IMG/VR virus record: IMGVR_UViG_3300022401_000003
Span: 1,250-65,249 of that record
Length of the DNA stretch: 64,000 bases
Reading direction: 5' to 3' (one strand)
Source of the DNA: a virus
Taxonomy: Duplodnaviria; Caudoviricetes
Position numbers and translations under genes: made by a program. Below the pieces are notes generated by a model. It ran no database searches. It was not told where the DNA came from and was given only the letters and a program-made list of their open reading frames with translations. Shown piece by piece: positions 15,946-32,823 of this stretch; the stretch's first letter is position 1; each line of letters begins with the position of its first letter.

Positions 15946-18900
15946 ATGCCTATATTTGAGTACAACGGAAAGAAGTACAATGTGAAAGACGAACACATTG
16001 ACAGCTTTATGAAAGATTTCCCCGATGCTTCAACCATTATGGAGCGTGAGGGGAAGAAGTATCGTGTTAGGTCGGCTGATTACAGGACGTTTATGTCTGA
16101 ACAACAGAACAGCGAGCCTCAACAGCCCGAACAGCCTGCGGCAGCACCTCCTGCACCCGAAGTGGAAGAGCCTGCAACTCCGACAGGCGAAACGCCGCTC
16201 ACAGAACAGGATAAAATACGTTTCAGCGCAGGTATTGAGCAGATGAAACGCCGTACACGTCAGTCTATGGACGATTTCAACGAACGTATGGCAACAATGC
16301 GTGAGTACCACGAGAACGCACCATTAGGCGGCGGACAGACTGTCGAGGGACGTATGATGTTCAACCCTCAAAGCGGCAAGGTAGAGAAAACCTACATCAC
16401 CCCACTTGGCAACAGGTACACAAGCAAGTGGCTTGCCGATATGGAAAGTTTCAGATACCGACAGGCGGCTGATATGTCCGTCAGTGGGCAGTTGCGCCGT
16501 GCAAGGTTGAAACTCGCAGAATTGCAGGCAAAGCGGAACGAGAGAGCCAGCGAGGTACACGATGAGGCTACGGAGTTCAATAACACCAAACTGACAGGAT
16601 TAGGTCATGCGCTCATCGGAGGTCAGATGTATGTAGGTATGCAACAGAGCGACCCCGAGAAGAATGCTTTGAATGTGGCTATTCGTCAGACAGAGGAACT
16701 TATCAAAGACCTCGAAGAACAGCAAGACCGTGAACAGGGTGAAGATGTTGGCTTTTGGCGTGGCTTCGGTCGTATTGCAGGCGATTTCAGAACGTGGGAC
16801 TTCGGTATGAGCGATTTGAGCGATGCAATGACAATGATGCACGCTGACCAACTTGTAGATGACAATGCGACCGAGGGCGAACGTGAAGCCTACAACGAAA
16901 TGATGGGCGCACTCTACAACAAGGAACAGGCGGAGCAGGCGTATGGCGGCAATGCAAGTTTTTGGAACAGAGCAGGTGTAATGACAGGCTATATGCCGTC
17001 CTTTATGCTTGACTTCGTGATTACAGGCGGTGGTTTCGAGGGTATCAGCCTACTTTCAAAGGGTGGCACAAGAGCCGCCACAAAGGTAATCGGAAGTGAG
17101 GTTGTTGAGGAAATGGCAGAACAAGGCTTCAAGACCTATGTGCGAAACAACGGTGTCAGAGGTTTCGGACAGTATGCAGGTAATTGGACCATTAAGGCAT
17201 TGGGTACAATGGGCGATGACTTGCTCATTCGTGCGCCGCTTATGACCAACACTGTGCAGGTTGGCAAAACAACCTCCGACATCATTGACCGCAAATTGGG
17301 TAATGTTGTCGTAAACGAGGACGGAACATACGATTTCAGCAATGATGAGACTTGGGGCAGTGCCATTTGGCAAGGCGAAGCCAATGCTATCATCGAGAAC
17401 TATTCGGAAATGTTCGGCGCACATCTTGACCCTGTTGTTACATTCGGTAATATGAGCAAACTTGCCAATGTGGTAGGTGCTAAACGTCTCGGTGCTGTGC
17501 TTTCAAAGGCTGATGCAGGTGCTTTGAATGGCATTATGGGACAAACACACCAACTGTTCAACAAAATGGGTGTGAGCGACTATTTTGGCGAGGTTACAGA
17601 GGAATACTATGGTCAGATGTGGCGCACAATGCTCAATCTTGACGATGCCTATCAGCAAAACCCGGACGGAACACGCACCAACCTATTTGCCACAGGACAA
17701 TTCCACGGTGATGTTTGGGGCGGTATGGCTCTTTCTATGGGATTGATGGGTGCAGGTAAGCACACTCTTTCGGCAGCACACTATACCTCAATGAAGCACA
17801 GTGTAAACAAGGCTGATGCACACGCAACAGAATTGCTTGGCAAAGAGGTATGGGAGCCGTTGAGAACATCGCTTGACCTTACCACCAATGAGGATATGGG
17901 CGCAATGGCAGAGGCTATTGTGAACGATAAGGACTTCACAGACGAAGAGAGAGCGGCTGTTCTCACCTATATGGAGCGTTCTATGATGATGAGAGGTTAC
18001 AACCTCGGAACACTCGCACAAAGAAGAGGTGCAGCACAGGATGAGGACGTACAGGCTCTTGATGAAAGTTACATTGACGGTTACAGCATTGAGAGTTCGC
18101 AGGAAATGAACGATGCCAAGAATATGTATGACTATCAACGTCAGAGGGCATTGGCAATCATTGAAGAAGATTTCCTTGCCGACATCGAGAACGACCCTGC
18201 GGCACATTTGGACTACATTCGTAACTCCGAAGATTGGAGTGATGAGGAACGAGGCATTTTGCTTGACTACCTCAACTCAAAGCAGGTGTATGACGGTATG
18301 ATACAGCGTGTGCGTGATGATATTGACGGACGCATCGACCAGAGCAACGCAATGGTAAATGCCCGTACCAACCGCACAACAGGTATGATACAGGGCGCAA
18401 CGATGAAGCAGGACGACCGCCGTGTGTATGTTATCAACGGAAACCTTGTGCAGTATGCAGACGGTAGCGGTATTGACATCGAGGCTTCGGACAACAGTAT
18501 CATTGTTCGTGATGCAGAGACAGGCGCACTTGAACAGGTGTCGCCCGATGCTATATTGAACATTGATGAGGCGTTAGACCCCATAACTGAAATGCAGACT
18601 GCCGCAGATGCTATCCGTCAGCAGTACGCACAGGAGGCAGCCAACAGGATTGATGGTGTTGTTACATTCAATCCGGGCGACACATACACCATTACAGGCG
18701 ATGATGCACAGATACAGGTGCAGATTGTAGCCAATGATGAGGGTATTGTGGATAATGGGGACGGCACTGTAAATGTGTCGGACGGTACAAACGTGTTCCC
18801 CTTGGCCAAGGAGACCATACAGCAACAGGCAGAGGCGGCACAGTTGGCACGTGTGGCGCAGTTCGAGCAGCAGAGAGCTGCCGAGAATGCAGCCTATCAG

Positions 18901-21900
18901 CAGGCTATTGAGGAAGAAAGCAGACCGCAGTATGCCCTCAACGACCTTGTTTCCCTCCGTGATGAGAACGGAAATGCTGTTCGTGGCAACATTACTACCG
19001 ATGCAGATGCAGACGGAAGATATGAGGTTTACACCGAAGCACCTATCAATGGCAAGCGTGTAAACCTGTTCACTCGTGATGAACTCGACAGTATGCTGAT
19101 GGAGCATAACGGAGTGGTAATCGAGCAACCTGCCGAGAATGAGGGTAACAATGGTGGCGAAAATATTCCCGAAAATGGCAACATTGCCCCTCAAAATATT
19201 CCTGCAATGCAGAGAATACCAAAGGATATGCAGGGCAATCCCCTTTATGAGCAGACCGACAGCGATACCGCTTGGGACGCTATCGTTGAGCAGACAGAGG
19301 GCGATGAGGCTATGGCACAAACCGTAGCCGATGGAATGGTTGCCGACAAAGAGGCAGCTTTGAAAAAATTGGAGAAAGCCAAGTCGAAAGGCGGTGCTAC
19401 CATTGCCGAGAAGATTGCTGCCGAGAAAGAACGCAAGGCGGCGATTGATGCGGCACAGCAGGAACTGAACATTTGGAAGAAGATTGCCGGTACTGCCAAC
19501 CGCAGAAGAATGGATGCAGAAGCAGAACGCAGACGTGTTGCCGATGAAGCCGCAGCACTCCGCAAGGCAGAGGAAGAGCGATTGCGTGCTGAACGTGAGG
19601 AAGCAGAGCGCATAGAGCGTGAAGCCCTCAACGGTGTTCCCGATATGGTGGACGATACTCCACAGGACGCACGAGCAAGAGGTTACAGACGTGTCAGTGG
19701 GCATAAGATTGACCGCCAAGAGCCTTTGCAGGCAGTACAGGGTAAAGAGGTTGCAGTACGTTTCAGCGATGATGCCATTGCCAATGGTCGTGTAGCAGTC
19801 ATTGATGCAGCCCAATTACAGCCGAGCCACATTCAAGGTGTGCGCAATCCTCTACACTTCATTGATGAGGCACAGCCGAAAGAGCGTAACGATGAAGCGA
19901 GTGTAATGTCGGCACGTAAGATTGCCGGGAACATTCGCCCCGAGGAGATTACTTCTTCCGTTACCGCCTATACAGGTGCGCCTACCGTGAACGCACGAGG
20001 AGAAGCCATACAGGGCAACAACCGTAGTGATGCGCTCCGTCTTATGTGGGAGAGCCACCAAGACCAGGCAGCGCAGTACAAGCAGTATCTGATTGACCAC
20101 GCAGAGGAATTTGGCTTGAATGCCGATGATGTTGCGGCTATGGAACGTCCTGTACTTGTGAATATGCTTGACGTGGACGATGCAGAGGCTATCACTCTTG
20201 GTCAGTTCGTGGCACAGGACACCGAGAGCGGAGGAACAGAGCGTATCAAGCCGAAGAATGCTTTGCAGAAAATGGGCAACGATATGCGTTCATTCGCCAA
20301 CCTGTTGTTGAAGTCCAACGATGAGGACACATCATTTGCAGGGCTTGTGGACAACAACGGTGTTGAGGTGTTGAAGTGGATGAGCCAAAGAGGTTACATC
20401 ACTCCTACACAGTACAAGAGTGCTTTTGACAGCAAGGGCAACCTTACTGCCGAGGCAAAGAACGATTTGCGAGGTATTATGTATCAGAGCATCTTCAAGG
20501 GCGGCAGCACCCGACTTGAAGAAATGTTCAACGCTATGCCTGCAAAGGCTCAAAAGGCTATCCTTGCAACGGCATTCCGTGATTATGACAGCCCTAATGC
20601 AGACCGTATGATTGAGGAGATACAGAACTCAATCCGTGCGTTCTATGCCCTATCGCAAAGCGAGGACTTTGTAAACGCCAAGACGTTCAAGGATGCACGT
20701 TTGGCAGTAGAGGGTTGGAAAATTCAGTACCAAATTGATGATGTAACAGGCGAAAGTTACCTACCTGCCGAGAATTTCAGTAACTTTGCACTGCTTTTGG
20801 CAACGATGTATAAAGGCGACAACCAAAGCGTCATTCAAGGTACTTTCAACAAACTTTACGACCTTATTCAAGGTACACAAGAACCAAACCTGTTTGAGCA
20901 GCCGGACAACACGCCTCGCACGCTTGCACAGGCTATTTACGAAACATTAAACATTACCTACGATGGACAACAGCGAAGCAATGTATTGGTTGGCGATAGT
21001 TCAGCAAGCCAACGAGGGCAGCAAGGAAGCACAGGAAATGCTGCAACAGGAGAACGAATTGAGAGTGGAGAGCGGACAGCCGACAGTACAGGAAGCATTG
21101 AAGCAGAAAGCACAACAGGCAACGAAGCCGTATATCAACCCCAACCCGAACGAAAAGGACTTGAACAAACTCCTGATGGAGGACGGGAAACAGACGGCAC
21201 AGGAGTGGCTGATGACGCAACCCAAGAAGTATTGGGAGCGAGCAACCGAGGCGATATACGAGTGCTTGAAGAGGGGTTGGACACTTCATACAGGGAATAT
21301 TCAGAGTACAGCGAGAGAACTCGACGCACAACGGAATCCGAAAGGCTGGTAAGCCTTGCCAAACAGCACGGCTTATTCATTCCTGCCGAAGTTACCAAGA
21401 CTTTGACAGGTAAGGTAGCAAAGCGCACAGGCGAGAGTGTTGTTTACATCGACACAGCAGCAGGCAAGGTAACAAAGGTCAAAGACCCGTACGCCAAGGC
21501 TGCAATGAAAAGCGGTGTTCAGCCCGAAGATGCCGCCTTTGAACACCTTGTGCATAATCTCCTGTTCCCCGAAACCGCCTACACATTGGAGGGTATCAGC
21601 GAGGAAATGGGCGATGTTCGCATTGTACTGTCGCAGGACTTCATTCAAAACTACGAACAACCTACAAAGGAACAGATTGCGGAAGCACTTGCCGCACGTG
21701 GATTGTTCCCGGAAGATAACTACTCTTTCGGTAATGAACTTGTGTCTGTAACCGATGTAGAGGGCGATAACGTGTTGTTGGGTGAAGATGGTACGGTGTA
21801 CTTCATTGACCCTATTATCCGTTTCAAAAAGCCGTTGAGAGAGATTTTAGCGGCTCTTGGTGGTGCTGAACAGAAAGCACCTACCATTGGCGAGCAGATA

Positions 21901-24900
21901 CAGGCAGCAGAGGCAGAGGTAAACACCAACCCTACCGAAGCACAGAAAGAGGCAGGCAACTACAAGAAAGGACACGTTCAGATTGGCACATTCAACGTAA
22001 CCATTGAACAGCCGAAAGGCTCTGTACGTAGTGGCGTAGATGCTGACGGCAAGAAATGGGAGACCGAAATGCAGAACACCTACGGCTACATTCGTGGCAC
22101 AGAGGGTGTGGACGGCGACCATATAGACGTGTTCCTGTCTGATGATATTGACGGTTGGGACGGACACAAAGTGTTCGTAGTGGACCAACGTAATGCAGAC
22201 GGCAGCTTCGATGAACATAAGGTTATGCTTGGCTTCAATGACATCAACGATGCCGAAGCAGCCTATATGAGCAACTATGAAGAAGGTTGGCAGGGACTTG
22301 GAGCCATTACAGGCGTTTCCATTGAGGAGTTCGAGAAGTGGATAGCCTCATCACATCGCAAGACCAAAGCATTTGCAGAGTACAAGAGTGTCAAGACCAC
22401 CGAGGGACAGAACGCATCGGCAGACAAGGATTTGCGCCGCAAACTCGCAGACTTCAATGTTGGCGATGTTGTGCGTGATTACTACAATCAGAAGTTGTAC
22501 CGCATCAAAAAACACTCAACCAATGGTGTTTCTACCATTGCAGAACTCGATGCAGAGGGTAACGAGGTGGGTACTACCACAATGAACGCCCACAACAATA
22601 GCCGTTACAGCCTTGCCGAAGCACCTGTAAAGGCAGAGACTCCGACTATATCACAGGATAGTGAGCAAGTCAGCGACCAAGATAACGCACCATACACTAT
22701 CGCTCCGGCACAGTACACCACCAAGAAAGGCAAGGTGCTTGATATGCACCTCGTGAAGTTTGCAGGCACTCTGACGAAAGAACAGCAGAGAGCAGCCAAA
22801 GAACTTGCCAAAGCCGAAAAGGGTTGGTATGACCGTGAGCAGGGTGGATTTATGATGCGTAGCGAAGAAAGCGCAAAGCAGTTGGCGGACACCATTCTGA
22901 ACAATGACGATGCCGTGAGCGATGCACAGCCTGTATCTATGACCGACATTCAAGCGTTGAACAATGGCGATGTGCTGTTTACCGAGCCTCAACAGCCAAA
23001 GGAGCAACCCAAAGACGAAGAGTATCATCCTATTTGGCAATACTCTATCCACATTGATGCAGACGGCTACACTACTATTAGTCGTGATGATGTAAGCAGT
23101 GGTTATCCGATTGGTGATGCTCGTTTCAGATATAGCACAGATAGTCCAGAAGAAATGCTCGACATTCTCCGCAACCCATTGAACGGAATGCAGGAAGCAT
23201 TAGAAGCTGTCGGTGTTACTCTTGAAAACAAGATTAAGACACGTGAACTTGACCGAAAGATTAAGGAAGAGCGCAGACGTGAGTATGAGGCTTTGAGAGC
23301 CAACGGCTACAATGGCTATAAAATTGGCGATGAAGTAATCTATAAGGGCAAGAAAGCAAAGATACACGACCTTGAAGAATATGGCGAACATCGTCCTGTA
23401 CTTGATACAGGGCTTGCACCTGTTATGTATGAGGTTGCAGAATGGAGCGATATTCAAAGCGATACATCGTCTAAAACTATATTCTCATCAGCATTCAAAG
23501 ACCTTGTTAGCGAAGATGGTAAATACAACATCCGTATAACAAAGGTCGATGGAGCAAAGCGTATAGTTACGGCAGACCTTAATACTGCTAATGTCGGTGG
23601 TGAGGGATTAGTTTTGTCTTTTGAAGAAATGACAGACATCCTTAATAGCGGCAATTGGCAGGAGAAGATTGCATCCGAGCCTAAAAACGAGGGGCAGTTC
23701 GGGCTTGTCAGCGATGAACGTATGGCTGAACTTAAAGACAGATTGCGCAAGAAATTGGGCGGACAGATGAACATCGGTATCGACCCCGAAATACTTGCTA
23801 TCGGTTTGGAAATTGCTGTCGGACATCTTGATAGAGGTGTAAAGACCTTTACAGACTTTGCAAAGGTTATGATTTCCGATTTGGGCGATGTTATACGTCC
23901 ATACCTCAAAGCGTTCTACAATGGAGCGAGAGAACTTCCCGAAGTTGTTGAGAATGGTTTGGCTTCCGATATGACCTCATACGATGAAGTGCAGAGTTTC
24001 GATGTTGCCAACTTTGACAAACAAGGCATTGATGCTTTTGCTACTGCTGAAACTGTAACAAGAGAAGCTGAGGTCGCACAGGAAGTTGAGGTCGCACAGG
24101 AACGCATCAAGAAAACACGTTCCGCAAAGAAAGAAACCAAGAAAAAATCCGTAACTTCGCAGGAACAAACAGGAGGTTTGTTCGACGACTTATTTGCTGA
24201 AACCAACAAGGCTGATGCAGAACTGCATCGCCAATTTGCAATGACGGTAAAGGCTGATATGCTTGCGGCTCTTGACAATGGAACAAAACCATACAGAAGC
24301 ATTTTAGACCTACGCAAGCGTGCAAGCGAGTTGGGAATGGAGGTTGATAGTGACGGAAGAACCGACATTTTGTTGCAGGAACTTGTTGAGGACGGATTGG
24401 TTAGAGCCGCACGTGAGGTTATTGGTCGCAAAGGTAGAAACAGTCGTGCATCATACGATTTGATATGCAAACTCTATGAAATGCAACCTACCATTGCCGC
24501 ACGAAGCAGTAACCGTATCAAGATGCAGCAGTACTCCACTCCTCTCCCAATGGCTTGGATAGCCAACCACTTCGCAATGGCAAACAAAGCAGGTGGCAAG
24601 GTATTGGAGCCAACGGCAGGTAACGGGATGTTGGTATTCACAGTTCCTGTTGAGCAAGTTCACGCCAATGAACTTGACGAGACACGATTGGATAATCTGC
24701 GAGAGCAAGGATTTGCAGAGGTAACACAGCAGGATGCAACAGAACCTTTCGAGGGTGGTATGCAGTATGATGTTGTTATTGCCAATCCACCCTTTGGAAA
24801 ACGTGAGGCTGTGGAGTATGACGGAAAGATGATACCCGGACTTGACCCACAGATTACGTTGAACGCTCTTGCAAGTATGAAAGATGATGGCAGAGCAGCC

Positions 24901-27900
24901 ATAATCATTGGTGGAAATATGGAGTATGCAAGCAATGGTGCAATCAAAAGTATGAAACCATTCTTTACTTACTTGTATGACCACTACAATGTGAAAGGTG
25001 TTATTGATATGAGCGGCGGACTGTACGCAAAGCAAGGTACTACGTTCCCTACTCGTATGATACTTATAGATGGTCGCAGAAGCGATGAGGAGCGAGCGCA
25101 GACAGCCGTATATCCTCCTGTGGAGAGTAAGGCTATTCGCAAGGCTGAAAGTTTTGACGACCTGTATGAGATAATTAACGAAGTATTAAACTCTAAGGAA
25201 AAGACAAATGGAACAGAAATATTACGTAGCCGAGAAAGGCAGTTGGCATCTGTCAATAACGAAACATCCGGGAACACTGACGGAGCAGGACATCGTGAAC
25301 AACCTCGAAAGAATGATGATGTTGGAAGCAGAAGAAAACCAACAAAAGAGCATTCGGACGGAAGCGAACAGGTTTTACCAAGAGAACGTAGAACGAATAA
25401 TGCAGATGGTGAAACCCGGGCAGAAACTCCAAGAGATAACGCAGGAGGAAGCAGAAGTGTATCTGACACTGACATTCAGCGAGTGGGAACAGAGCGAGTT
25501 TCCACAAACGGAGTGGGATTAAAGCAGACTCCAACCGAACACAAGAAACGTACTCTTACAGATGAAAAGAGTGCGTATCGTCCTCATAACAGTGCATTTT
25601 CACTTAACAGCGTTGCCCCTGCTGCAATGGTCGAGGCAATGGACAATGTGCTAACTCAAATTGAAGCACAGCACGGTAGCATTGACGAATTTATCAGAAC
25701 TGAACTCGGATATGACACCGTTGAGGAAGCACACCAGGCACTTGCCGCAGAACAGATGGATAGTGTTGCTATGGCTATCTATCAGATGAAGCAAGGACAA
25801 GCACTCATTATCGGCGACCAAACAGGTGTTGGTAAGGGTCGCCAAATGGCAGCACTTATTCGTTGGGCAGTTCAACGAGGTGAGAAACCTGTATTCATCA
25901 CACAGAAAGCAGACCTATTCTCCGATATTTACCGAGACTTGGTAGATGTTGGAAGTGGAGACCTTGTGCCGTTTATTTTCAACTCTGACGGTGCAATGGT
26001 TGATAGCAAAGGTAATACAGTACACAAACCTCTATCTTCCACTGAAATGGCAAAAGTATTTGCATCGGGAACATTGCCCGATGAATATGACTTCGCAGTG
26101 CTCACCTATTCACAGGTAAATACAGGCGATGCTGTCAGTCAGCAGGAAATGGAAGAAGCTGCCAAAAAGAGCGGCGCACGTACCAAGAAAAGCAAGAACG
26201 TAAAGAATGGCAAGGCTACACCAAAGGCTACATTCTTACGTGCCATTGCAGAGGATAATTATCTGTTCCTTGATGAAAGCCACACGGCAGCAGGTTCAAG
26301 CAATACAGGCGCATATCTCCAAAGCATTCTACGCACCGCAAAAGCAGCCACATTTGCAAGTGCTACATTCGCAAAGCGTCCCGACACAATGCCTTTGTAT
26401 GCAATTCGCACAGCGATGAGCCAAGCAAAGGTTGAGCCAGATAAAATGATTAGTATCATTGAAAAAGGCGGTGTAACTCTGCAAGAGATTATGAGCCGTG
26501 AATTGACTAATGCAGGGCAAATGGTACGCAGGGAGCGAGATATGAGCGATGTTATTACCGATTGGAAAACAATTACAGACCCCGAAACCGTTAGACGTGC
26601 AAGAGAGAACTACGACCGTACCATAGCGGCATTCAATGCCATCATCAAGTTCCAAGAGGACTACGTAAAGCCGATGATTGAAGCGTTGGATATGGAACTC
26701 GCAGTTATGGCAGAGAGCGCAGGTGTGAAGCGAGGCACAGATAAAATGGGCGTTGAGAACGTGCCATTTGCAAGCAAGACCTACAACTACACCAAGCAGC
26801 TTATGCTTGCCCTCAAAGTTGATGCTATTGCAGATGAGGTGGAAGCCGAAATCAATGCAGGTCGCCACCCTGTTATTGCGTTGGAAAGCACAATGGAGAG
26901 CAGCATTAAGGACTATGCCGCAGGCGAAATCATTGATGAGCCTACATTCAGTGCAAGCCTACTGAAAGGACTTGACACCGTTATGCAGTACACCGTAAAA
27001 GATGAGGACGGTAACGAACGCCACGAGCGATATTCTCCACAGGCATTAGGTCCAGCAGGAGAAAAGGCATATTACGAGTTGCAGGACTTCATTCGTGAGA
27101 GTACAAGCGACATCTTTATCAGTCCACTTGATGCCATTATCGAGCGTCTGCACGAGAAAGGATACAAAGTAGGTGAACTGACAGGACGTAATATGTATGT
27201 TGAGCGCAACGATGACGGACGTGTCGTTGTCAAGCGTAGAACCGACAAGGACAAAAAGAGAATGCAGCGAGAGTTTAACAGTGGTGTCCTTGATGTTCTT
27301 ATCCTCAACAAGTCTGCATCAACAGGTATCAGTCTGCACGCATCAGAGAAATTCAGCGACCAACGTCAGCGTTCAATGATTATTGCACAGCCATTGAGCG
27401 ACATCAACGACTATATGCAGATGATTGGACGTATAGACCGCACAGGACAGGTGCATAGAGGTTACTACATCAACCTCGGTCTGCCTGTTCCTGCCGAAAA
27501 CCGTTTCTTGATGATGCTTTCTACCAAGTTAAAGTCTTTGAACGCTAATACCACGACCTCACAGGATAGTGAAAGCAACGATGTAGAAGCACCTGACTTG
27601 CTCAATAAATACGGTAGCCAAGTTGTTGTAGAGTATCTACGAGATAATGTGGAAATCTATGAGAAAATGGGTACACCTTTGAAGAAAGGCGGACTTGGAG
27701 GCGGTCGTGTGCAAGCAAGCGAACTTGATGAGTACAAGCCACAGGAAGATGATGCACGAAAAGTTACGGGATACGTAGCCCTTTTGACCACAAAGGAGCA
27801 AGAGGAGTTTTACGATGATGTGGTAAGACGTTACAATGAATTGATTAAGTACCTCAACGATACAGGTAGCAACGATTTGAAGATTAACGTAATGCCACTT

Positions 27901-30900
27901 CGTGCCAAGACGATAGAGAGACGTGTATCATCAGAAGGCATTGACCCGAACGGCAGTAATCCTTTTGCACGCAATTCCTTTGTGGAAAAGGTGGAAATGG
28001 ACGTATTGAGAAAGCCGATGAAAGCCGATGAAATACGCAAGGTTATTGAGCAGATAAACCGAGGTGTTGCCCCAGCTGAATACTTGGAAAGTGTCATCGA
28101 GATAATCCGTAAAGAGGACGAAGCGAGAATTGCCGCAGAGGAAGAACGTTACGAGAAAGCAAAAGCGAAAGCCGTAGAGGATATTGCCAAGCAGACAGAC
28201 AAAATCAACGGACAGAAGAAACGTAGCGAAGAGGAAAAGCGTGTTGCCATAGAAAACTTTATCGCAGAGACTAACGAAAAGGTTGAAGCGAAGCACAATG
28301 ACAATATTCTACGCCTCAACCAAAGCAGCGACCAGATGATGCACCGCTTGAGAATGTTTGAAGTTGGCAAGTCTTATCTTGTGCCGGATAACCTTGAGTC
28401 GATGATTTTTGACTTTGCCACTCCTGCTATTTTCTGTGGATACAAAACAAAGGACAGCAAAATTACAGCCTCAACAACACTTGCGGTATTTGCTACCCTT
28501 GACGGTCGCAGACGCATTGAAATCAAACTGTCGCAAATTGATGCGTTGCGAAGCATTGACAAGATGACCAATGACAATTGGGATGCTGCACGTGCCACTA
28601 CGCTTGATAATTGGGATAGTCAGATACCAAGTGAGACACGAAAGACAGGTTTCATTATGACAGGAAATATCTTGCAGGCTATCGCCGATACACAAGATGA
28701 ATACGGAGGCTATCCGGGACAGCTCATTAGTTATACTGATATTGACGGTAATGTTCACGATGGTATCTTAATGCCCGACAAATGGAATGCATCAATGCTC
28801 AAAACAAGCGGTGCGCCATTGAGTAGTCGTTTGCAACAGATAAAAGACTATACGCCTATAACAAGCCACGATGGAAAGGTTGAAATTATGGGTAGCAGTT
28901 GGGCAAAGATGTTCTACCTCACTGTTCCTAAGACAAAGAAAGATGGTGCTGTTTACTATGAAAACAAGACCTTGCTACGTGCCGCAGGTGGAAACTTCTA
29001 CCCTTATCGTGGAAAGTTGCGTGCGGATATTCCCGAGGAACGTATAACAGAGGTTGTTAAGGAACTTACCAAATTGGGCGTAAAAGTCAAGGAGGAACAC
29101 CATAGTGATGATGCCTTAAATCGTGAGGGTGTCGGCTCATATACTGATGATGAGTTGGCTTTGGAGAGCGACCCTGTTTCAAAGCCAAGAGGAACGAGAA
29201 AGCAGCGCAGGGAGTTTGCACAGCGTGAACGTCAGAGAATGGCAGAACGTGTGGAACGCCTTGCAAAGAAACTGCATCTTGATAATGTTGAGGTCGTAAC
29301 TGATGCAAGTACATTGGAGGGCAAGAAACAGCGTGCAAAGGGTTTCTACACAAAGAGTACAGGCAAGATAACTATTGTTATCCCTAACCATTCAACTGCT
29401 TTTGACGTTGAACAGACTTTGCTCCACGAGGCAGTTGCCCACTATGGATTACGTCAGTTGTTCGGAGAGCATTTTGAAACATTCCTCGACAATGTATTCA
29501 ACAATGCAGATGAGGCTATCCGTCAGCGTATCGTTGCCCTTGCTGCAAAGAACGGCTGGGATTTCCACAAGGCTACGGAAGAATATCTTGCTATGCTTGC
29601 AGAGAACACCGAATTTGAGAACACCAATGCAAGTTGGTGGAGGCAGATTAAGGATTTCTTCTTGAATATGCTTCACAAGATAGGTTTTGAGGATTTCAGA
29701 GGAGTTACTCTGACTGATAACGAACTTCGCTATATCTTGTGGCGCAGTTATGAAAACCTTGCAGAGCCGGGCAGATACCGTAGCATATTGGGCGAAGCTG
29801 CTGATGTGGCTAAACAATACGAGTTGGGTGTTGGTAACTATTCAGATACCAACCTCAACCCGAATTTCGCCGCCGAAAGCGATGATGACCTCTATCGTGA
29901 TGGAGACCCCAAAATACACGAAAGGGAATTGGCACGAGACCGTTATGAAAGACGTGTCAAGACAGGTATGTTCCAATCACAGGAGGCATTGCAGGATAGT
30001 ATGCTCGGACTGAAAGAAGCAATGCAGGCTATCCTTGGCCAAGGAACAAACATTGAAGATGTGGACGGCTTCGAGAATGCTTATTTGGGCGAAAACCGCC
30101 TGTCGAGTGTGAACAAAGCCGAAGCAGATGCTTTCGCACAGACATTGTTCAAGCCAATGCTTGATGAGGTTGCCAAACTTTCCCGAAATGAGGCAGAGCG
30201 TGAGGAACTGACCGATTATATGATGGCTAAACACGGACTTGAACGTAATGCGTATATGCGTAATGAGGCTATCAATAACGGTGCTACTGATGCAGACCAA
30301 ACCGACTATGCAGGTTTAACAGCCTTAACAGGTATGGACGATGTTGCCGATGCCGAAGCGGAAGCACAGCGCATTGTTGATGATTACGAACAGGCACACG
30401 ACACAACTGACCTTTGGGAGAAAGTCAATGCCGTAAGCAAGGCTATTCTTCAAAAGTCATACGATTGTGGAATGATGAGCAAAGAGACATTCGATAAAGT
30501 TTCGGCTATGTACGAGTTCTATATCCCATTACGTGGCTTTGACGAAAAGACAAGTGCAGAGGCATACGCTTACCTGTCGCATAAACATAGTGCTTTCAAT
30601 GCTCCTATCAAGAAAGCAGAGGGACGTAGGTCAAAAGCCGATGACCCATTTGCCAACCTGCAATCTATGGCAGAGGGTGCGATAATGCAGGGCAACAGAA
30701 ACAAGTTGGTGAAACAGCGTTTCTTGAACTTTGCCCTCAACCACCCGAGCGACCTTGTGAGCGTTAGCGACATCTGGGTAGAATATGATGCAGTAACCGA
30801 TGAATGGAAACCTGTATTCCCGGACAACATCGAGAGTACAGACACCCCCGAAGAGGTTGAGCAGAAGATGCAGGACTTTGAGACAAAGATGGAGTCATTG

Positions 30901-32823
30901 GCACAGCAGTACCCCGACCAATACAAGAGAGGTAAAGATGCTATCGGCATTCCTTACCGCATTGTAGAGAGCCGAGATATGAGACAGCACCAAGTTGTTG
31001 TGAAGCGTGGCGGTAGAGATTATGTAATCACTATCAACGGCAACCCTCGTGCGGCGCAGGCATTGAACGGACAGACCAACCCCGACAATGATATGTCGGG
31101 TGCTATCGGTGCTATTCTTCGTGCAGGAGAAAAGATAAACCGTCAGTTGAGTGCGCTCTATACCACACGTAACCCGGACTTCATCGTATCGAACTTTATG
31201 CGTGATATGCTCTACACCAACAGTATGGCGTGGATAAAGGAAAGCCCGAACTACGCTCTGCGTTTCCACAGGAACTACCTAATGGTAAACCCTGTTACAA
31301 TGAAACGCTTATTGGCGAAATATCGCAAGGGAACGCTTGATATGAGCAACAGGACCGAAGCAATGTTCCATCAGTTTATGATGAACGGAGGCGAAACAGG
31401 CTATGCCAATATCCGAGACATCGAGCAGCATAAGAACGACATCCGCAAGGAACTGAAACGAGCAAACGGCAAACTGAAACTTGCACGTGCTTGGAGCCTG
31501 CTTGCAGAGAAGTTCGATGAACTGAACAGAGCTGTTGAGAACTGTGCCCGATTTGCCGCTTTTGTAACCTCTCGTGAAATGGGCAGAAGCATTGACAGAG
31601 CCATTTACGATGCAAAGGAGATAAGTGTAAACTTCAACAAGAAAGGTAGCGGAGCGAAGTTCTATGACAGCGTAGGACAGACAAAGGCAGGAAACGCAAG
31701 TGCATTGGTATCGGGACTTGGTCGTAGCGGTTACGTCTTTTGGAATGCCGCCATTCAAGGTACTACCAACTTCGGGCGACAGATGAAGCGACACCCGGCA
31801 AAAGCCTTTACAGGTGTTGCGGCAATGTTCCTGCTTGGTGCTATCGTGGCATATTTGGGTGGCGATGATGATGAGGACGACAAGAACGCATACTACAACC
31901 TGCCCGAGTATGTGAGACGTAGTAACATTTTGTTCCGTGCAGGCGACAGTTGGATTTCCATTCCTCTGCCTATCGAGTACAGAGCGTTCTACGGAATGGG
32001 TGAACTTATGACCTCTGTATTCAGTGGCAAGGAACACCTTACAGGTGGCGAGATTGCCGAGGCGGTTTTGGGACAGGCTACACAGATATTGCCTATTGAC
32101 TTCTTGGAGGGTGGCGGTGGATTGAACGCTTTTGTTCCGAGTGCTGCCAAACCATTGTGGGAAGCCTACGTTGCAGAAAAGAGTTGGACGGGTATGCCAC
32201 TCTATAAGGACACTCCTTTCAATAAGGATATGCCGGAATGGACGAAAGCATACAGCAGCACCAATAAACACATCGTGAACTTGGCGGCAACTCTGAACGA
32301 GGCAACAGGTGGCGACCCATACACAAAGGGAGCAATCGACATCAACCCTGCCAAAGTTGAGTATATGCTAAACGGTTATTTCGGTGGAGTGTTCGGTACT
32401 ATCGACAAACTGACAAAGACTGCTGAAACGATTGTCGGCGACAGAGAGTATGACCCTCGTAGCATACTGTTGGTAAACCGACTTGTCAAGGCAGGCGATG
32501 AACGTACCGAGTACCGTGCCGTAAATAATGAGTATTTCCGTTTGAAAGAGGAACACGACCGATTGAAAACCCGATTGAGACACTATGAGGAAGATACCGA
32601 CAACGGCATCTTTGACTATGCCGAGAAGATAGATTTCCTCTACAACTCGCCCGAATACGAGCGTTACGAAATCTTTGAGGACTACCGCAAGGACATTGAC
32701 GACCTCTACGATGAAATGCAGGAGGCAGTCGATGATGAAGAGCGCAAGGACATCGAAGCCGAGTTGAACGAACTCAAAAAGGAGATGATACAGGAAATGA
32801 ACACAACTCGCAAACGTAAATAG
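15946..32823 (+). CDS. Giant (5625 aa) polyvalent ejection protein, DarB-like: ParB/DdrB-like, kinase, inorganic pyrophosphatase, N6-adenine methyltransferase, strawberry-notch helicase, HExxxH and LPD38-like domains
   Basis: QGNNRS (~20010); TKVKDP..DVEGDNVL..YFIDP (~21420-21820); GNYKKGH..DGDHIDVF..DEHKVMLGF (~21955-22350); QYSTP..VLEPTAGNG..NPPF (24526-24795); GDQTGVGKGRQ (~25813), DESH (~26271); HEAVAH (29425); C-terminal LPD38-like region. Confidence 0.88.
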   Translation: MPIFEYNGKKYNVKDEHIDSFMKDFPDASTIMEREGKKYRVRSADYRTFMSEQQNSEPQQPEQPAAAPPAPEVEEPATPTGETPLTEQDKIRFSAGIEQMKRRTRQSMDDFNERMATMREYHENAPLGGGQTVEGRMMFNPQSGKVEKTYITPLGNRYTSKWLADMESFRYRQAADMSVSGQLRRARLKLAELQAKRNERASEVHDEATEFNNTKLTGLGHALIGGQMYVGMQQSDPEKNALNVAIRQTEELIKDLEEQQDREQGEDVGFWRGFGRIAGDFRTWDFGMSDLSDAMTMMHADQLVDDNATEGEREAYNEMMGALYNKEQAEQAYGGNASFWNRAGVMTGYMPSFMLDFVITGGGFEGISLLSKGGTRAATKVIGSEVVEEMAEQGFKTYVRNNGVRGFGQYAGNWTIKALGTMGDDLLIRAPLMTNTVQVGKTTSDIIDRKLGNVVVNEDGTYDFSNDETWGSAIWQGEANAIIENYSEMFGAHLDPVVTFGNMSKLANVVGAKRLGAVLSKADAGALNGIMGQTHQLFNKMGVSDYFGEVTEEYYGQMWRTMLNLDDAYQQNPDGTRTNLFATGQFHGDVWGGMALSMGLMGAGKHTLSAAHYTSMKHSVNKADAHATELLGKEVWEPLRTSLDLTTNEDMGAMAEAIVNDKDFTDEERAAVLTYMERSMMMRGYNLGTLAQRRGAAQDEDVQALDESYIDGYSIESSQEMNDAKNMYDYQRQRALAIIEEDFLADIENDPAAHLDYIRNSEDWSDEERGILLDYLNSKQVYDGMIQRVRDDIDGRIDQSNAMVNARTNRTTGMIQGATMKQDDRRVYVINGNLVQYADGSGIDIEASDNSIIVRDAETGALEQVSPDAILNIDEALDPITEMQTAADAIRQQYAQEAANRIDGVVTFNPGDTYTITGDDAQIQVQIVANDEGIVDNGDGTVNVSDGTNVFPLAKETIQQQAEAAQLARVAQFEQQRAAENAAYQQAIEEESRPQYALNDLVSLRDENGNAVRGNITTDADADGRYEVYTEAPINGKRVNLFTRDELDSMLMEHNGVVIEQPAENEGNNGGENIPENGNIAPQNIPAMQRIPKDMQGNPLYEQTDSDTAWDAIVEQTEGDEAMAQTVADGMVADKEAALKKLEKAKSKGGATIAEKIAAEKERKAAIDAAQQELNIWKKIAGTANRRRMDAEAERRRVADEAAALRKAEEERLRAEREEAERIEREALNGVPDMVDDTPQDARARGYRRVSGHKIDRQEPLQAVQGKEVAVRFSDDAIANGRVAVIDAAQLQPSHIQGVRNPLHFIDEAQPKERNDEASVMSARKIAGNIRPEEITSSVTAYTGAPTVNARGEAIQGNNRSDALRLMWESHQDQAAQYKQYLIDHAEEFGLNADDVAAMERPVLVNMLDVDDAEAITLGQFVAQDTESGGTERIKPKNALQKMGNDMRSFANLLLKSNDEDTSFAGLVDNNGVEVLKWMSQRGYITPTQYKSAFDSKGNLTAEAKNDLRGIMYQSIFKGGSTRLEEMFNAMPAKAQKAILATAFRDYDSPNADRMIEEIQNSIRAFYALSQSEDFVNAKTFKDARLAVEGWKIQYQIDDVTGESYLPAENFSNFALLLATMYKGDNQSVIQGTFNKLYDLIQGTQEPNLFEQPDNTPRTLAQAIYETLNITYDGQQRSNVLVGDSSASQRGQQGSTGNAATGERIESGERTADSTGSIEAESTTGNEAVYQPQPERKGLEQTPDGGRETDGTGVADDATQEVLGASNRGDIRVLEEGLDTSYREYSEYSERTRRTTESERLVSLAKQHGLFIPAEVTKTLTGKVAKRTGESVVYIDTAAGKVTKVKDPYAKAAMKSGVQPEDAAFEHLVHNLLFPETAYTLEGISEEMGDVRIVLSQDFIQNYEQPTKEQIAEALAARGLFPEDNYSFGNELVSVTDVEGDNVLLGEDGTVYFIDPIIRFKKPLREILAALGGAEQKAPTIGEQIQAAEAEVNTNPTEAQKEAGNYKKGHVQIGTFNVTIEQPKGSVRSGVDADGKKWETEMQNTYGYIRGTEGVDGDHIDVFLSDDIDGWDGHKVFVVDQRNADGSFDEHKVMLGFNDINDAEAAYMSNYEEGWQGLGAITGVSIEEFEKWIASSHRKTKAFAEYKSVKTTEGQNASADKDLRRKLADFNVGDVVRDYYNQKLYRIKKHSTNGVSTIAELDAEGNEVGTTTMNAHNNSRYSLAEAPVKAETPTISQDSEQVSDQDNAPYTIAPAQYTTKKGKVLDMHLVKFAGTLTKEQQRAAKELAKAEKGWYDREQGGFMMRSEESAKQLADTILNNDDAVSDAQPVSMTDIQALNNGDVLFTEPQQPKEQPKDEEYHPIWQYSIHIDADGYTTISRDDVSSGYPIGDARFRYSTDSPEEMLDILRNPLNGMQEALEAVGVTLENKIKTRELDRKIKEERRREYEALRANGYNGYKIGDEVIYKGKKAKIHDLEEYGEHRPVLDTGLAPVMYEVAEWSDIQSDTSSKTIFSSAFKDLVSEDGKYNIRITKVDGAKRIVTADLNTANVGGEGLVLSFEEMTDILNSGNWQEKIASEPKNEGQFGLVSDERMAELKDRLRKKLGGQMNIGIDPEILAIGLEIAVGHLDRGVKTFTDFAKVMISDLGDVIRPYLKAFYNGARELPEVVENGLASDMTSYDEVQSFDVANFDKQGIDAFATAETVTREAEVAQEVEVAQERIKKTRSAKKETKKKSVTSQEQTGGLFDDLFAETNKADAELHRQFAMTVKADMLAALDNGTKPYRSILDLRKRASELGMEVDSDGRTDILLQELVEDGLVRAAREVIGRKGRNSRASYDLICKLYEMQPTIAARSSNRIKMQQYSTPLPMAWIANHFAMANKAGGKVLEPTAGNGMLVFTVPVEQVHANELDETRLDNLREQGFAEVTQQDATEPFEGGMQYDVVIANPPFGKREAVEYDGKMIPGLDPQITLNALASMKDDGRAAIIIGGNMEYASNGAIKSMKPFFTYLYDHYNVKGVIDMSGGLYAKQGTTFPTRMILIDGRRSDEERAQTAVYPPVESKAIRKAESFDDLYEIINEVLNSKEKTNGTEILRSRERQLASVNNETSGNTDGAGHREQPRKNDDVGSRRKPTKEHSDGSEQVLPRERRTNNADGETRAETPRDNAGGSRSVSDTDIQRVGTERVSTNGVGLKQTPTEHKKRTLTDEKSAYRPHNSAFSLNSVAPAAMVEAMDNVLTQIEAQHGSIDEFIRTELGYDTVEEAHQALAAEQMDSVAMAIYQMKQGQALIIGDQTGVGKGRQMAALIRWAVQRGEKPVFITQKADLFSDIYRDLVDVGSGDLVPFIFNSDGAMVDSKGNTVHKPLSSTEMAKVFASGTLPDEYDFAVLTYSQVNTGDAVSQQEMEEAAKKSGARTKKSKNVKNGKATPKATFLRAIAEDNYLFLDESHTAAGSSNTGAYLQSILRTAKAATFASATFAKRPDTMPLYAIRTAMSQAKVEPDKMISIIEKGGVTLQEIMSRELTNAGQMVRRERDMSDVITDWKTITDPETVRRARENYDRTIAAFNAIIKFQEDYVKPMIEALDMELAVMAESAGVKRGTDKMGVENVPFASKTYNYTKQLMLALKVDAIADEVEAEINAGRHPVIALESTMESSIKDYAAGEIIDEPTFSASLLKGLDTVMQYTVKDEDGNERHERYSPQALGPAGEKAYYELQDFIRESTSDIFISPLDAIIERLHEKGYKVGELTGRNMYVERNDDGRVVVKRRTDKDKKRMQREFNSGVLDVLILNKSASTGISLHASEKFSDQRQRSMIIAQPLSDINDYMQMIGRIDRTGQVHRGYYINLGLPVPAENRFLMMLSTKLKSLNANTTTSQDSESNDVEAPDLLNKYGSQVVVEYLRDNVEIYEKMGTPLKKGGLGGGRVQASELDEYKPQEDDARKVTGYVALLTTKEQEEFYDDVVRRYNELIKYLNDTGSNDLKINVMPLRAKTIERRVSSEGIDPNGSNPFARNSFVEKVEMDVLRKPMKADEIRKVIEQINRGVAPAEYLESVIEIIRKEDEARIAAEEERYEKAKAKAVEDIAKQTDKINGQKKRSEEEKRVAIENFIAETNEKVEAKHNDNILRLNQSSDQMMHRLRMFEVGKSYLVPDNLESMIFDFATPAIFCGYKTKDSKITASTTLAVFATLDGRRRIEIKLSQIDALRSIDKMTNDNWDAARATTLDNWDSQIPSETRKTGFIMTGNILQAIADTQDEYGGYPGQLISYTDIDGNVHDGILMPDKWNASMLKTSGAPLSSRLQQIKDYTPITSHDGKVEIMGSSWAKMFYLTVPKTKKDGAVYYENKTLLRAAGGNFYPYRGKLRADIPEERITEVVKELTKLGVKVKEEHHSDDALNREGVGSYTDDELALESDPVSKPRGTRKQRREFAQRERQRMAERVERLAKKLHLDNVEVVTDASTLEGKKQRAKGFYTKSTGKITIVIPNHSTAFDVEQTLLHEAVAHYGLRQLFGEHFETFLDNVFNNADEAIRQRIVALAAKNGWDFHKATEEYLAMLAENTEFENTNASWWRQIKDFFLNMLHKIGFEDFRGVTLTDNELRYILWRSYENLAEPGRYRSILGEAADVAKQYELGVGNYSDTNLNPNFAAESDDDLYRDGDPKIHERELARDRYERRVKTGMFQSQEALQDSMLGLKEAMQAILGQGTNIEDVDGFENAYLGENRLSSVNKAEADAFAQTLFKPMLDEVAKLSRNEAEREELTDYMMAKHGLERNAYMRNEAINNGATDADQTDYAGLTALTGMDDVADAEAEAQRIVDDYEQAHDTTDLWEKVNAVSKAILQKSYDCGMMSKETFDKVSAMYEFYIPLRGFDEKTSAEAYAYLSHKHSAFNAPIKKAEGRRSKADDPFANLQSMAEGAIMQGNRNKLVKQRFLNFALNHPSDLVSVSDIWVEYDAVTDEWKPVFPDNIESTDTPEEVEQKMQDFETKMESLAQQYPDQYKRGKDAIGIPYRIVESRDMRQHQVVVKRGGRDYVITINGNPRAAQALNGQTNPDNDMSGAIGAILRAGEKINRQLSALYTTRNPDFIVSNFMRDMLYTNSMAWIKESPNYALRFHRNYLMVNPVTMKRLLAKYRKGTLDMSNRTEAMFHQFMMNGGETGYANIRDIEQHKNDIRKELKRANGKLKLARAWSLLAEKFDELNRAVENCARFAAFVTSREMGRSIDRAIYDAKEISVNFNKKGSGAKFYDSVGQTKAGNASALVSGLGRSGYVFWNAAIQGTTNFGRQMKRHPAKAFTGVAAMFLLGAIVAYLGGDDDEDDKNAYYNLPEYVRRSNILFRAGDSWISIPLPIEYRAFYGMGELMTSVFSGKEHLTGGEIAEAVLGQATQILPIDFLEGGGGLNAFVPSAAKPLWEAYVAEKSWTGMPLYKDTPFNKDMPEWTKAYSSTNKHIVNLAATLNEATGGDPYTKGAIDINPAKVEYMLNGYFGGVFGTIDKLTKTAETIVGDREYDPRSILLVNRLVKAGDERTEYRAVNNEYFRLKEEHDRLKTRLRHYEEDTDNGIFDYAEKIDFLYNSPEYERYEIFEDYRKDIDDLYDEMQEAVDDEERKDIEAELNELKKEMIQEMNTTRKRK
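20963..21352 (+). CDS. Putative nested gene (129 aa) in the +1 frame of the giant protein gene
   Basis: Protein-like helical composition (E/Q/L/M/W) while the host frame is a G/S/R/T linker; A-rich leader ATTAAACATTACCTACG-ATG. Confidence 0.5.
   Translation: MDNSEAMYWLAIVQQANEGSKEAQEMLQQENELRVESGQPTVQEALKQKAQQATKPYINPNPNEKDLNKLLMEDGKQTAQEWLMTQPKKYWERATEAIYECLKRGWTLHTGNIQSTARELDAQRNPKGW
25208..25522 (+). CDS. Putative nested gene (104 aa) in the +1 frame of the giant protein gene
   Basis: MEQKYYVAEKGSWHLSITKHP... acidic helical ORF spanning the MTase-helicase linker; leader ATTAAACTCTAAGGAAAAGACAA-ATG. Confidence 0.5.
   Translation: MEQKYYVAEKGSWHLSITKHPGTLTEQDIVNNLERMMMLEAEENQQKSIRTEANRFYQENVERIMQMVKPGQKLQEITQEEAEVYLTLTFSEWEQSEFPQTEWD

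Follow-up and report, generated by a model that had tools for sequence, protein, structure and literature searches.

Evidence for a dual-coding gene embedded out of frame at the methyltransferase-helicase junction of a giant polyvalent phage gene

The window analyzed here, 64,000 nucleotides of IMG/VR record IMGVR_UViG_3300022401_000003, covers nearly the entire 65,249-bp complete virus record; among cultured phages, its closest relative is BS-TP4, a temperate Bacteroides phage (84% nucleotide identity across the region). Inside its gene for a 5,625-residue polyvalent DarB-like protein lies a second open reading frame (ORF) of 104 codons, here called X, at positions 25208-25522 of the plus strand; it begins at ATG 25208-25210, ends at TAA 25520-25522, occupies the +1 frame of the giant ORF ((25208 − 15946) mod 3 = 1) and encodes a product that terminates in ...EWEQSEFPQTEWD. 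Judging from comparative sequence evidence, we hold, with a probability of about 0.88, that X is a genuine, selected, dual-coding gene embedded out of frame at the junction between the N6-adenine methyltransferase (MTase) and helicase domains. A sequence-only reading of the same DNA had described X as an acidic, helical ORF placed between these domains and had taken it for a true nested protein-coding gene. The ORF is present, with a net charge of −10 and a mostly helical AlphaFold2 model; the N6_Mtase match extends to ~25086 and the helicase match begins at ~25732; and its standing as a gene is borne out by the evidence from homologues.

Conservation of the nested frame

Homologous MTase-helicase junctions were assembled from 29 IMG/VR loci and BS-TP4, giving 30 loci whose identity in the main frame, that of the giant protein, falls from 99% to 60%. 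In 30 of 30, X starts at a homologously placed ATG in the +1 frame, runs without an internal stop and ends at a single stop at the homologous end (directly after ...EWD); it ranges in length from 103 to 144 codons and is unannotated in BS-TP4. Start and stop are likewise kept at all 10 of the loci found in GTDB genomes (Phocaeicola, Prevotella, Alloprevotella, Bacteroidales metagenome-assembled genomes and one metagenome-assembled genome labeled Bacillota), where the −1 frame relative to X, that is, the main frame, continues open for up to >4,000 codons and reaches the end of the available sequence. Short metagenomic contigs carrying the same junction, which reads ...KTNGTE.LR, then linker, then GVGL...AYRPHN.A.SL.S.APAAM in the main frame, retain the start and stop of X at only 28-38% identity of the +1 product. 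Altogether, the same ATG and stop are found in ~45 homologous loci, including prophages in Bacteroidales genomes. The ATG is invariant and, because it is kept, the main-frame Asn codon is AAT in every sequence, whereas ~45% of pairs differ at flanking synonymous sites.

Two long metagenomic contigs, L036 (227 kb) and L037 (55 kb), start ~150 nucleotides upstream of X, inside the MTase-helicase junction; gene callers report X on them (as P0003) because the contigs start inside the giant gene.

Selection at the junction

The pattern of variation changes phase where the two frames overlap. Aligned by main-frame codons, 27 distinct sequences differ pairwise at codon positions 1/2/3 by means of 0.10/0.09/0.46 upstream of X, 0.12/0.07/0.45 downstream, 0.10/0.08/0.46 for flanking sequence and 0.40/0.29/0.27 across X; within X, variation thus peaks at main-frame position 1, where the +1 frame has its wobble position. 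An alignment on the X protein gives 0.32/0.25/0.42 for the X-frame positions. Main-frame synonymous variability, defined as the share of codon pairs with the same main-frame residue that use different codons, is 0.45 on both flanks versus 0.137 in the overlap, with a minimum of 0.057, and the amino-acid identity of X exceeds that of the linker in 99% of 190 pairs.

The giant gene was scanned over its full 5,625 codons, with BLASTP high-scoring segment pairs against 28 homologous giant genes back-mapped to codons and read in 30-codon windows; gene-wide averages are 0.424 for synonymous variability and 0.21/0.16/0.48 for positions 1/2/3. The scan flags only 25216-~25530, which is X, and 20941-~21120, the start of a second +1 ORF (nested gene 1), and only there does position-1 variability exceed that of position 3. 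The signal is therefore specific, rather than general to linkers or to purine-rich sequence, and the two +1 ORFs that had been picked earlier from the sequence prove to be exactly the two spots in the whole giant gene that bear the overlap signature. A low-variability window at ~23575, seen in a first, poorly aligned scan, was not reproduced by the scan based on segment pairs.

The predicted protein and its family

An AlphaFold2 model built from a 20-sequence alignment of the +1 products is a compact α/β domain of two short strands and about seven helices, with a mean predicted local distance difference test score (pLDDT) of 91.7 and a predicted template modeling score (pTM) of 0.85. As a control, the main frame of the same 20 loci gives pLDDT 53.5, pTM 0.12 and zero secondary structure. 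This main-frame segment, characterized by alignment, composition and the AlphaFold2 control, is the inter-domain linker (NGTEILRS...GVGLK; 25207-25530, plus strand), in which the DNA of X is read in the −1 frame; it is 12% hydrophobic, rich in R, G, S, T, N and E and rich in indels, versus 32% hydrophobic residues in X. The X protein of the window has a mass of ~12 kDa and an isoelectric point (pI) of 4.6, and the family is uniformly acidic (median pI 4.26, median net charge −16).

Among 1.84 billion cluster representatives, a profile search found 68 matches at E≤1e-3, 32 of them at E≤1e-10, mostly proteins of 100-145 residues aligned end to end. They share the N-terminal motif M-(E/A)-Q-K-Y-Y...L-T-x-T-x-H-P-G-x-L-T-x-x-D-I-x-x-N-L-x-R-M and usually end in E-(F/L)-P-x-x-E-W-D.

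Relatives outside the overlap and the age of the two frames

Relatives of X also occur as ordinary genes. P0022 (140 residues, contigs L032/L033) has stops in both other frames and lies 3′ of a 352-residue helix-turn-helix/KorA-like gene, and P0009 (L039), likewise non-overlapped and with its other frames interrupted by stops, has an FtsK/SpoIIIE gene nearby. In P0013, a protein of 455 residues, X is the C-terminal domain; its gene resides on a CTnDOT-like conjugative element (L094/L095/L096, e.g., L095:2279-8822) with ParA, TraJ, TraG and DUF4133/4134 genes, two genes upstream of a 1,297-residue ResIII+Eco57I helicase-methylase, which makes a second, non-overlapping association with a helicase-methylase. 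That neighbor was considered as a close homologue of the MTase-helicase of the window and is not one. In P0045, the X domain is fused in frame near the N-terminus.

P0005 (L034:7340-8169), on a contig with a Mob_Pre relaxase gene, has a copy of residues 2606-2692 of the giant protein running on in frame into X, and its −1 frame over X holds a 42%-identical relic of the main-frame linker, followed by a stop. From its sequence, P0005 looks like a decayed polyvalent gene, a deletion derivative in which X alone stayed intact.

Codon usage differs between the two frames. The codon adaptation index of the X frame is higher than that of the linker frame in 10 of 10 lineages (0.58-0.67 versus 0.52-0.60), with typical coding windows at 0.74 and non-coding +1 windows at 0.50±0.04 for reference. 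X is probably the older frame, and the linker of the giant protein a younger one laid over it, because X has the wider distribution, the ordered structure and the better codon adaptation, which are criteria in use for overlapping genes (review PMC8227390). We posit that reading of an upstream polyvalent ORF came to continue across X in the −1 frame into the helicase ORF, so that the DNA of X would have become a linker. The earlier description of X as an overprinted gene would then stand as far as the nested gene is concerned, with the direction probably reversed.

Start context and expression

Upstream of X, a +1-frame stop (TAA 25187-25189) is followed by an A-rich leader of 18 nucleotides (...AAGGAAAAGACAA), together spanning 25187-25207 on the plus strand. 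Among homologues, AAGACAAATGG is near-invariant 5′ of the ATG, and the ~20 nucleotides before the ATG are A-rich. In Bacteroidota, initiation is independent of Shine-Dalgarno (SD) sequences and uses an A-rich context, so an SD sequence is not expected; the leader with AAGACAAATGG may well be the initiation context of X. We propose that X would be made by independent internal initiation at the conserved ATG on the giant-gene mRNA, from an A-rich, SD-less leader, and that the giant protein, reading the same DNA one base earlier, would acquire a disordered tether joining its MTase and helicase modules.

A different leader element, ATTAAAC, had been noted as common to X and nested gene 1. It does occur at both, at 25185-25191 and ~20945-20951, and it is not conserved in homologues, where GTAATCAAC, TATTGAAT and others replace it. 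In the main frame it reads TTA-AAC (Leu-Asn), and its TAA is the +1-frame stop that bounds X; we have dropped it as a shared regulatory leader.

Several points weigh against a dual-coding X or against giving it a function. The loci share ancestry, so their counts are not counts of independent trials, and the X region evolves faster than the enzyme domains, the constraint on X being moderate. Expression, we assume, must rely on internal initiation inside a translated 17-kb ORF: no Bacteroides −7 promoter motif (TAnnTTTG) was found on the plus strand within ~1.5 kb upstream of X, which makes internal initiation on the giant-gene mRNA the simplest route. A term search of the BS-TP4 paper (PMC12694917) turned up no mention of mass spectrometry. 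As to function, X matches no Pfam or PHROG family, a Pfam search member by member gave no consistent one, and profile searches reveal no sequence relative in the PDB. Foldseek searches of the X model against the PDB and BFVD gave best E values of 5.5 and 2.1, none ≤0.001, and the best hits of a wide VIA-align search (Z 3.4) were to unrelated chains; an ESM Atlas search with X returned no usable match. P0005, the one MTase-linked fusion, is weak as a Rosetta-stone argument: the linker relic in its −1 frame marks it as a deletion derivative of a polyvalent gene. As far as sequence profiles and the model reach, X is a member of an undescribed acidic protein family without a detectable fold relative.

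Alternative explanations

The alternative that fares best, and is still improbable, is a programmed +1 frameshift upstream of X, which would yield a truncated giant protein, from the N-terminus through the MTase, ending in the X domain. That X is the C-terminal domain of larger proteins elsewhere (P0013, P0016 and P0043) fits such an arrangement, as does the one assembly in which MTase and X share a single frame, P0071. The +1 stop, however, lies 6-7 codons upstream of the ATG in most loci, and the few open +1 codons (mostly 6-7 in the loci checked) leave little room for a shift site; inspection by eye showed no shift-prone motif there, and no formal search for frameshift sites was made. The ATG, moreover, never varies, and homologues free of overlap start at the corresponding Met (M-E/A-Q/K-K-Y-Y).

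P0071 itself (Logan contig L035:2046-3410) owes its single frame to a one-base difference in a GAAAAG run, through which the junction ...NSKEKTNG becomes ...NSKERQMEQ. On the same contig the giant gene falls apart into five or more ORFs, consistent with indel noise, and we regard P0071 as probably a product of assembly indels and not as a natural MTase-X fusion.

Two further alternatives are very unlikely. In the first, the nucleic acid itself would be under constraint, an RNA structure or a DNA site (for packaging, recombination or regulation) suppressing synonymous change. Synonymous constraint by itself does not tell what is constrained, but variation in the X frame has a period of three and peaks at the X wobble position, hydrophobic periodicity is kept in X, AlphaFold2 folds the product with confidence, and homologues elsewhere are ordinary non-overlapped genes. 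In the second, only X would be real: the main frame would not be translated through, the MTase and helicase parts would be separate and the long ORF fortuitous. The main-frame segment is indeed disordered, poorly conserved and poorly codon-adapted. Yet when the X protein of each lineage was held fixed and its codons were redrawn from phage usage (2,000 draws for each of 10 lineages), a main frame without stops over X survived in ≤0.15% of redraws per lineage, whereas in nature it is open in every one; in the converse redraw, with the linker protein fixed, the X frame was open in 2-10% of draws. Every indel, furthermore, keeps MTase and helicase in one frame, and the ORF is intact at 5,100-6,600 residues. 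Both frames are maintained; the overlap is true dual coding, neither two separate genes nor a fortuitous shadow.

What remains is chance, a purine-rich, T-poor linker that merely happens to lack +1 stops and encodes nothing. Of 1,000 versions of the giant gene with shuffled synonymous codons, 86% held a stop-free +1 run of 104 codons or longer, 52% two or more such runs and 61% an ATG-started ORF of at least 104 codons; over the X linker, the longest +1 run had a median of 81 codons and reached at least 104 in 15.5%. Stop codons are scarce in the X stretch because it is T-poor (15% T versus 21% in the giant gene), and in the antisense frames of the giant gene open runs extend up to 413 codons. 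If only this genome is considered, the length of X is not beyond chance. The sequence-only reading had taken two cases with the same frame, context and leader as an argument against chance; on the randomized-linker comparison that it had itself put forward, this genome alone does not exclude chance, and the verdict is reversed by the comparative evidence, which, as sequence evidence, is what places X beyond chance. With an ATG and stop kept in ~45 loci, the phase flip, a three-fold drop in main-frame synonymous change, a confidently predicted fold and non-overlapped homologues all left unexplained, chance can be dismissed as the source of X.

Possible functions and comparison with known systems

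Two roles for X suggest themselves, each offered tentatively, because X is small, very acidic, situated at the MTase-helicase joint and recurrent on conjugative and mobilizable elements. It might be (i) a counter-defense or establishment factor of mobile elements, possibly acting by acidic or DNA-mimic-like inhibition, or (ii) a partner or inhibitor of the DarB-like MTase-helicase module, expressed together with it in stoichiometric amounts.

Among nested phage genes, Rz1 of lambda is a spanin gene embedded in the +1 frame of Rz. Rz1, like X, is small and complete: its start and stop codons both fall within a larger phage gene, whose +1 frame it occupies, and the two proteins are presumably translated from one mRNA. 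Unlike Rz1, X has neither a hydrophobic leader nor a Cys lipobox at its N-terminus (MEQKYYVAEKG) and is of an acidic, soluble type; the host, moreover, is a 17-kb polyvalent enzyme gene rather than a lysis gene, and the larger frame is disordered and apparently the younger. Overprinting has been well reviewed (PMC8227390). The phiX174 overlaps, A/B/K and D/E, resemble X in dual coding, in reduced synonymous change and in having one frame ordered and the other disordered, and they show a codon-usage asymmetry of the kind used to infer the older frame. In contrast to phiX174, whose tiny genome is under size pressure, X belongs to a 65-kb tailed temperate phage; its overlap falls where two domains of a giant multidomain protein meet, and is still present when the embedded protein has diverged to ~28% identity.

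The host gene has the multidomain make-up of polyvalent proteins (Iyer et al. 2017, PMC5512222) and of P1 DarB, including the MTase and helicase pair, and relatives of X are found on conjugative and mobilizable elements, as polyvalent domains are (PMC5512222). Unlike those domains, X is not among the Pfam LPD families and is delivered from a second frame instead of as an in-frame domain. A term search of PMC5512222 found overlapping, nested or frameshifted ORFs and linkers unmentioned, and full-text literature searches yielded no account of polyvalent or DarB-like proteins with nested genes. The DNA-mimic anti-restriction proteins T7 Ocr and ArdA, like X, are small, strongly acidic and encoded by phages or conjugative elements next to anti-restriction-type modules; Pfam, Foldseek and VIA-align detected no sequence or structural similarity between them and X; the likeness is one of resemblance only.

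The host gene and its surroundings

The host gene (15946-32823, plus strand) is a single ORF of 16,878 nucleotides in which Pfam recognizes ddrB-ParB, Kinase-PolyVal, InPase, N6_Mtase, AAA_34/Helicase_C_4 and LPD38 domains. The defining mark of polyvalent proteins, several unrelated enzymatic and polyvalent-associated domains in one phage polypeptide, is found here by Pfam, and the gene product, which has a DarB-like MTase-helicase pair, is polyvalent as Iyer et al. 2017 (PMC5512222) use the term; it is a virion or ejection-type protein. In the main frame, the upstream neighbor of X is the N6-adenine MTase domain (24748-25086, plus strand; Pfam N6_Mtase/MTS/Eco57I matches), and the downstream neighbor is a helicase module of strawberry-notch (Sbno)/SNF2-like type (25732-27885, plus strand; Pfam AAA_34 and Helicase_C_4). 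The giant ORF is intact, at ~5,100-6,600 codons, in nearly all homologues, and is interrupted upstream in two homologous loci (L068 and L074). In the homologous giant genes L054-L082, the part from the N-terminus to ~24250 is non-collinear between relatives, with modules swapped or inserted, and all of them are collinear from the MTase across X to the helicase. BS-TP4 is a sewage isolate; of a set of Chinese gut viromes, 31% are reported to contain it (PMC12694917).

Nested gene 1, the other long +1 ORF, lies in the linker between the ParB and kinase domains (20963-21352, plus strand), and both linkers of the giant gene with a long +1 ORF show the overlap signature. In the codon scan, nested gene 1 displays it over its first ~55 codons (MDNSEAMYWLAIVQQANEG...), with synonymous variability of 0.05-0.15 and a phase flip at 20941-21120. 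This N-terminal part is kept even where the polyvalent architecture differs downstream, and the C-terminal half is variable or absent; in L042, the unit is duplicated to give 198 codons. A database search with nested gene 1 found 77 proteins, many of 70-75 residues, among them P0101, a non-overlapping relative of 70 residues encoded between polyvalent-type genes (PBECR2, MuF_C) next to rpsP-rimM.

Implications

ORFs nested in longer ORFs are discarded by gene callers, and the synonymous-constraint scan used here is applicable to all polyvalent and DarB-like genes. In the case of X, such a scan points to a 65-kb tailed phage in which out-of-frame dual coding would long have been maintained where the domains of a giant multi-enzyme protein meet, and X would add an acidic family common to phages and conjugative elements to the candidates for counter-defense. 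More speculatively, the disordered linkers of giant polyvalent ejection proteins could be small older genes read in a second frame, with polyvalent genes growing by out-of-frame read-through, the small protein being kept as a partner that is translated on its own but always co-transcribed, and X representing a new family, with a new fold, that acts in anti-defense or regulates the MTase-helicase. The reading of an intervening gene in a different frame would offer a concrete route by which polyvalent proteins may assemble.

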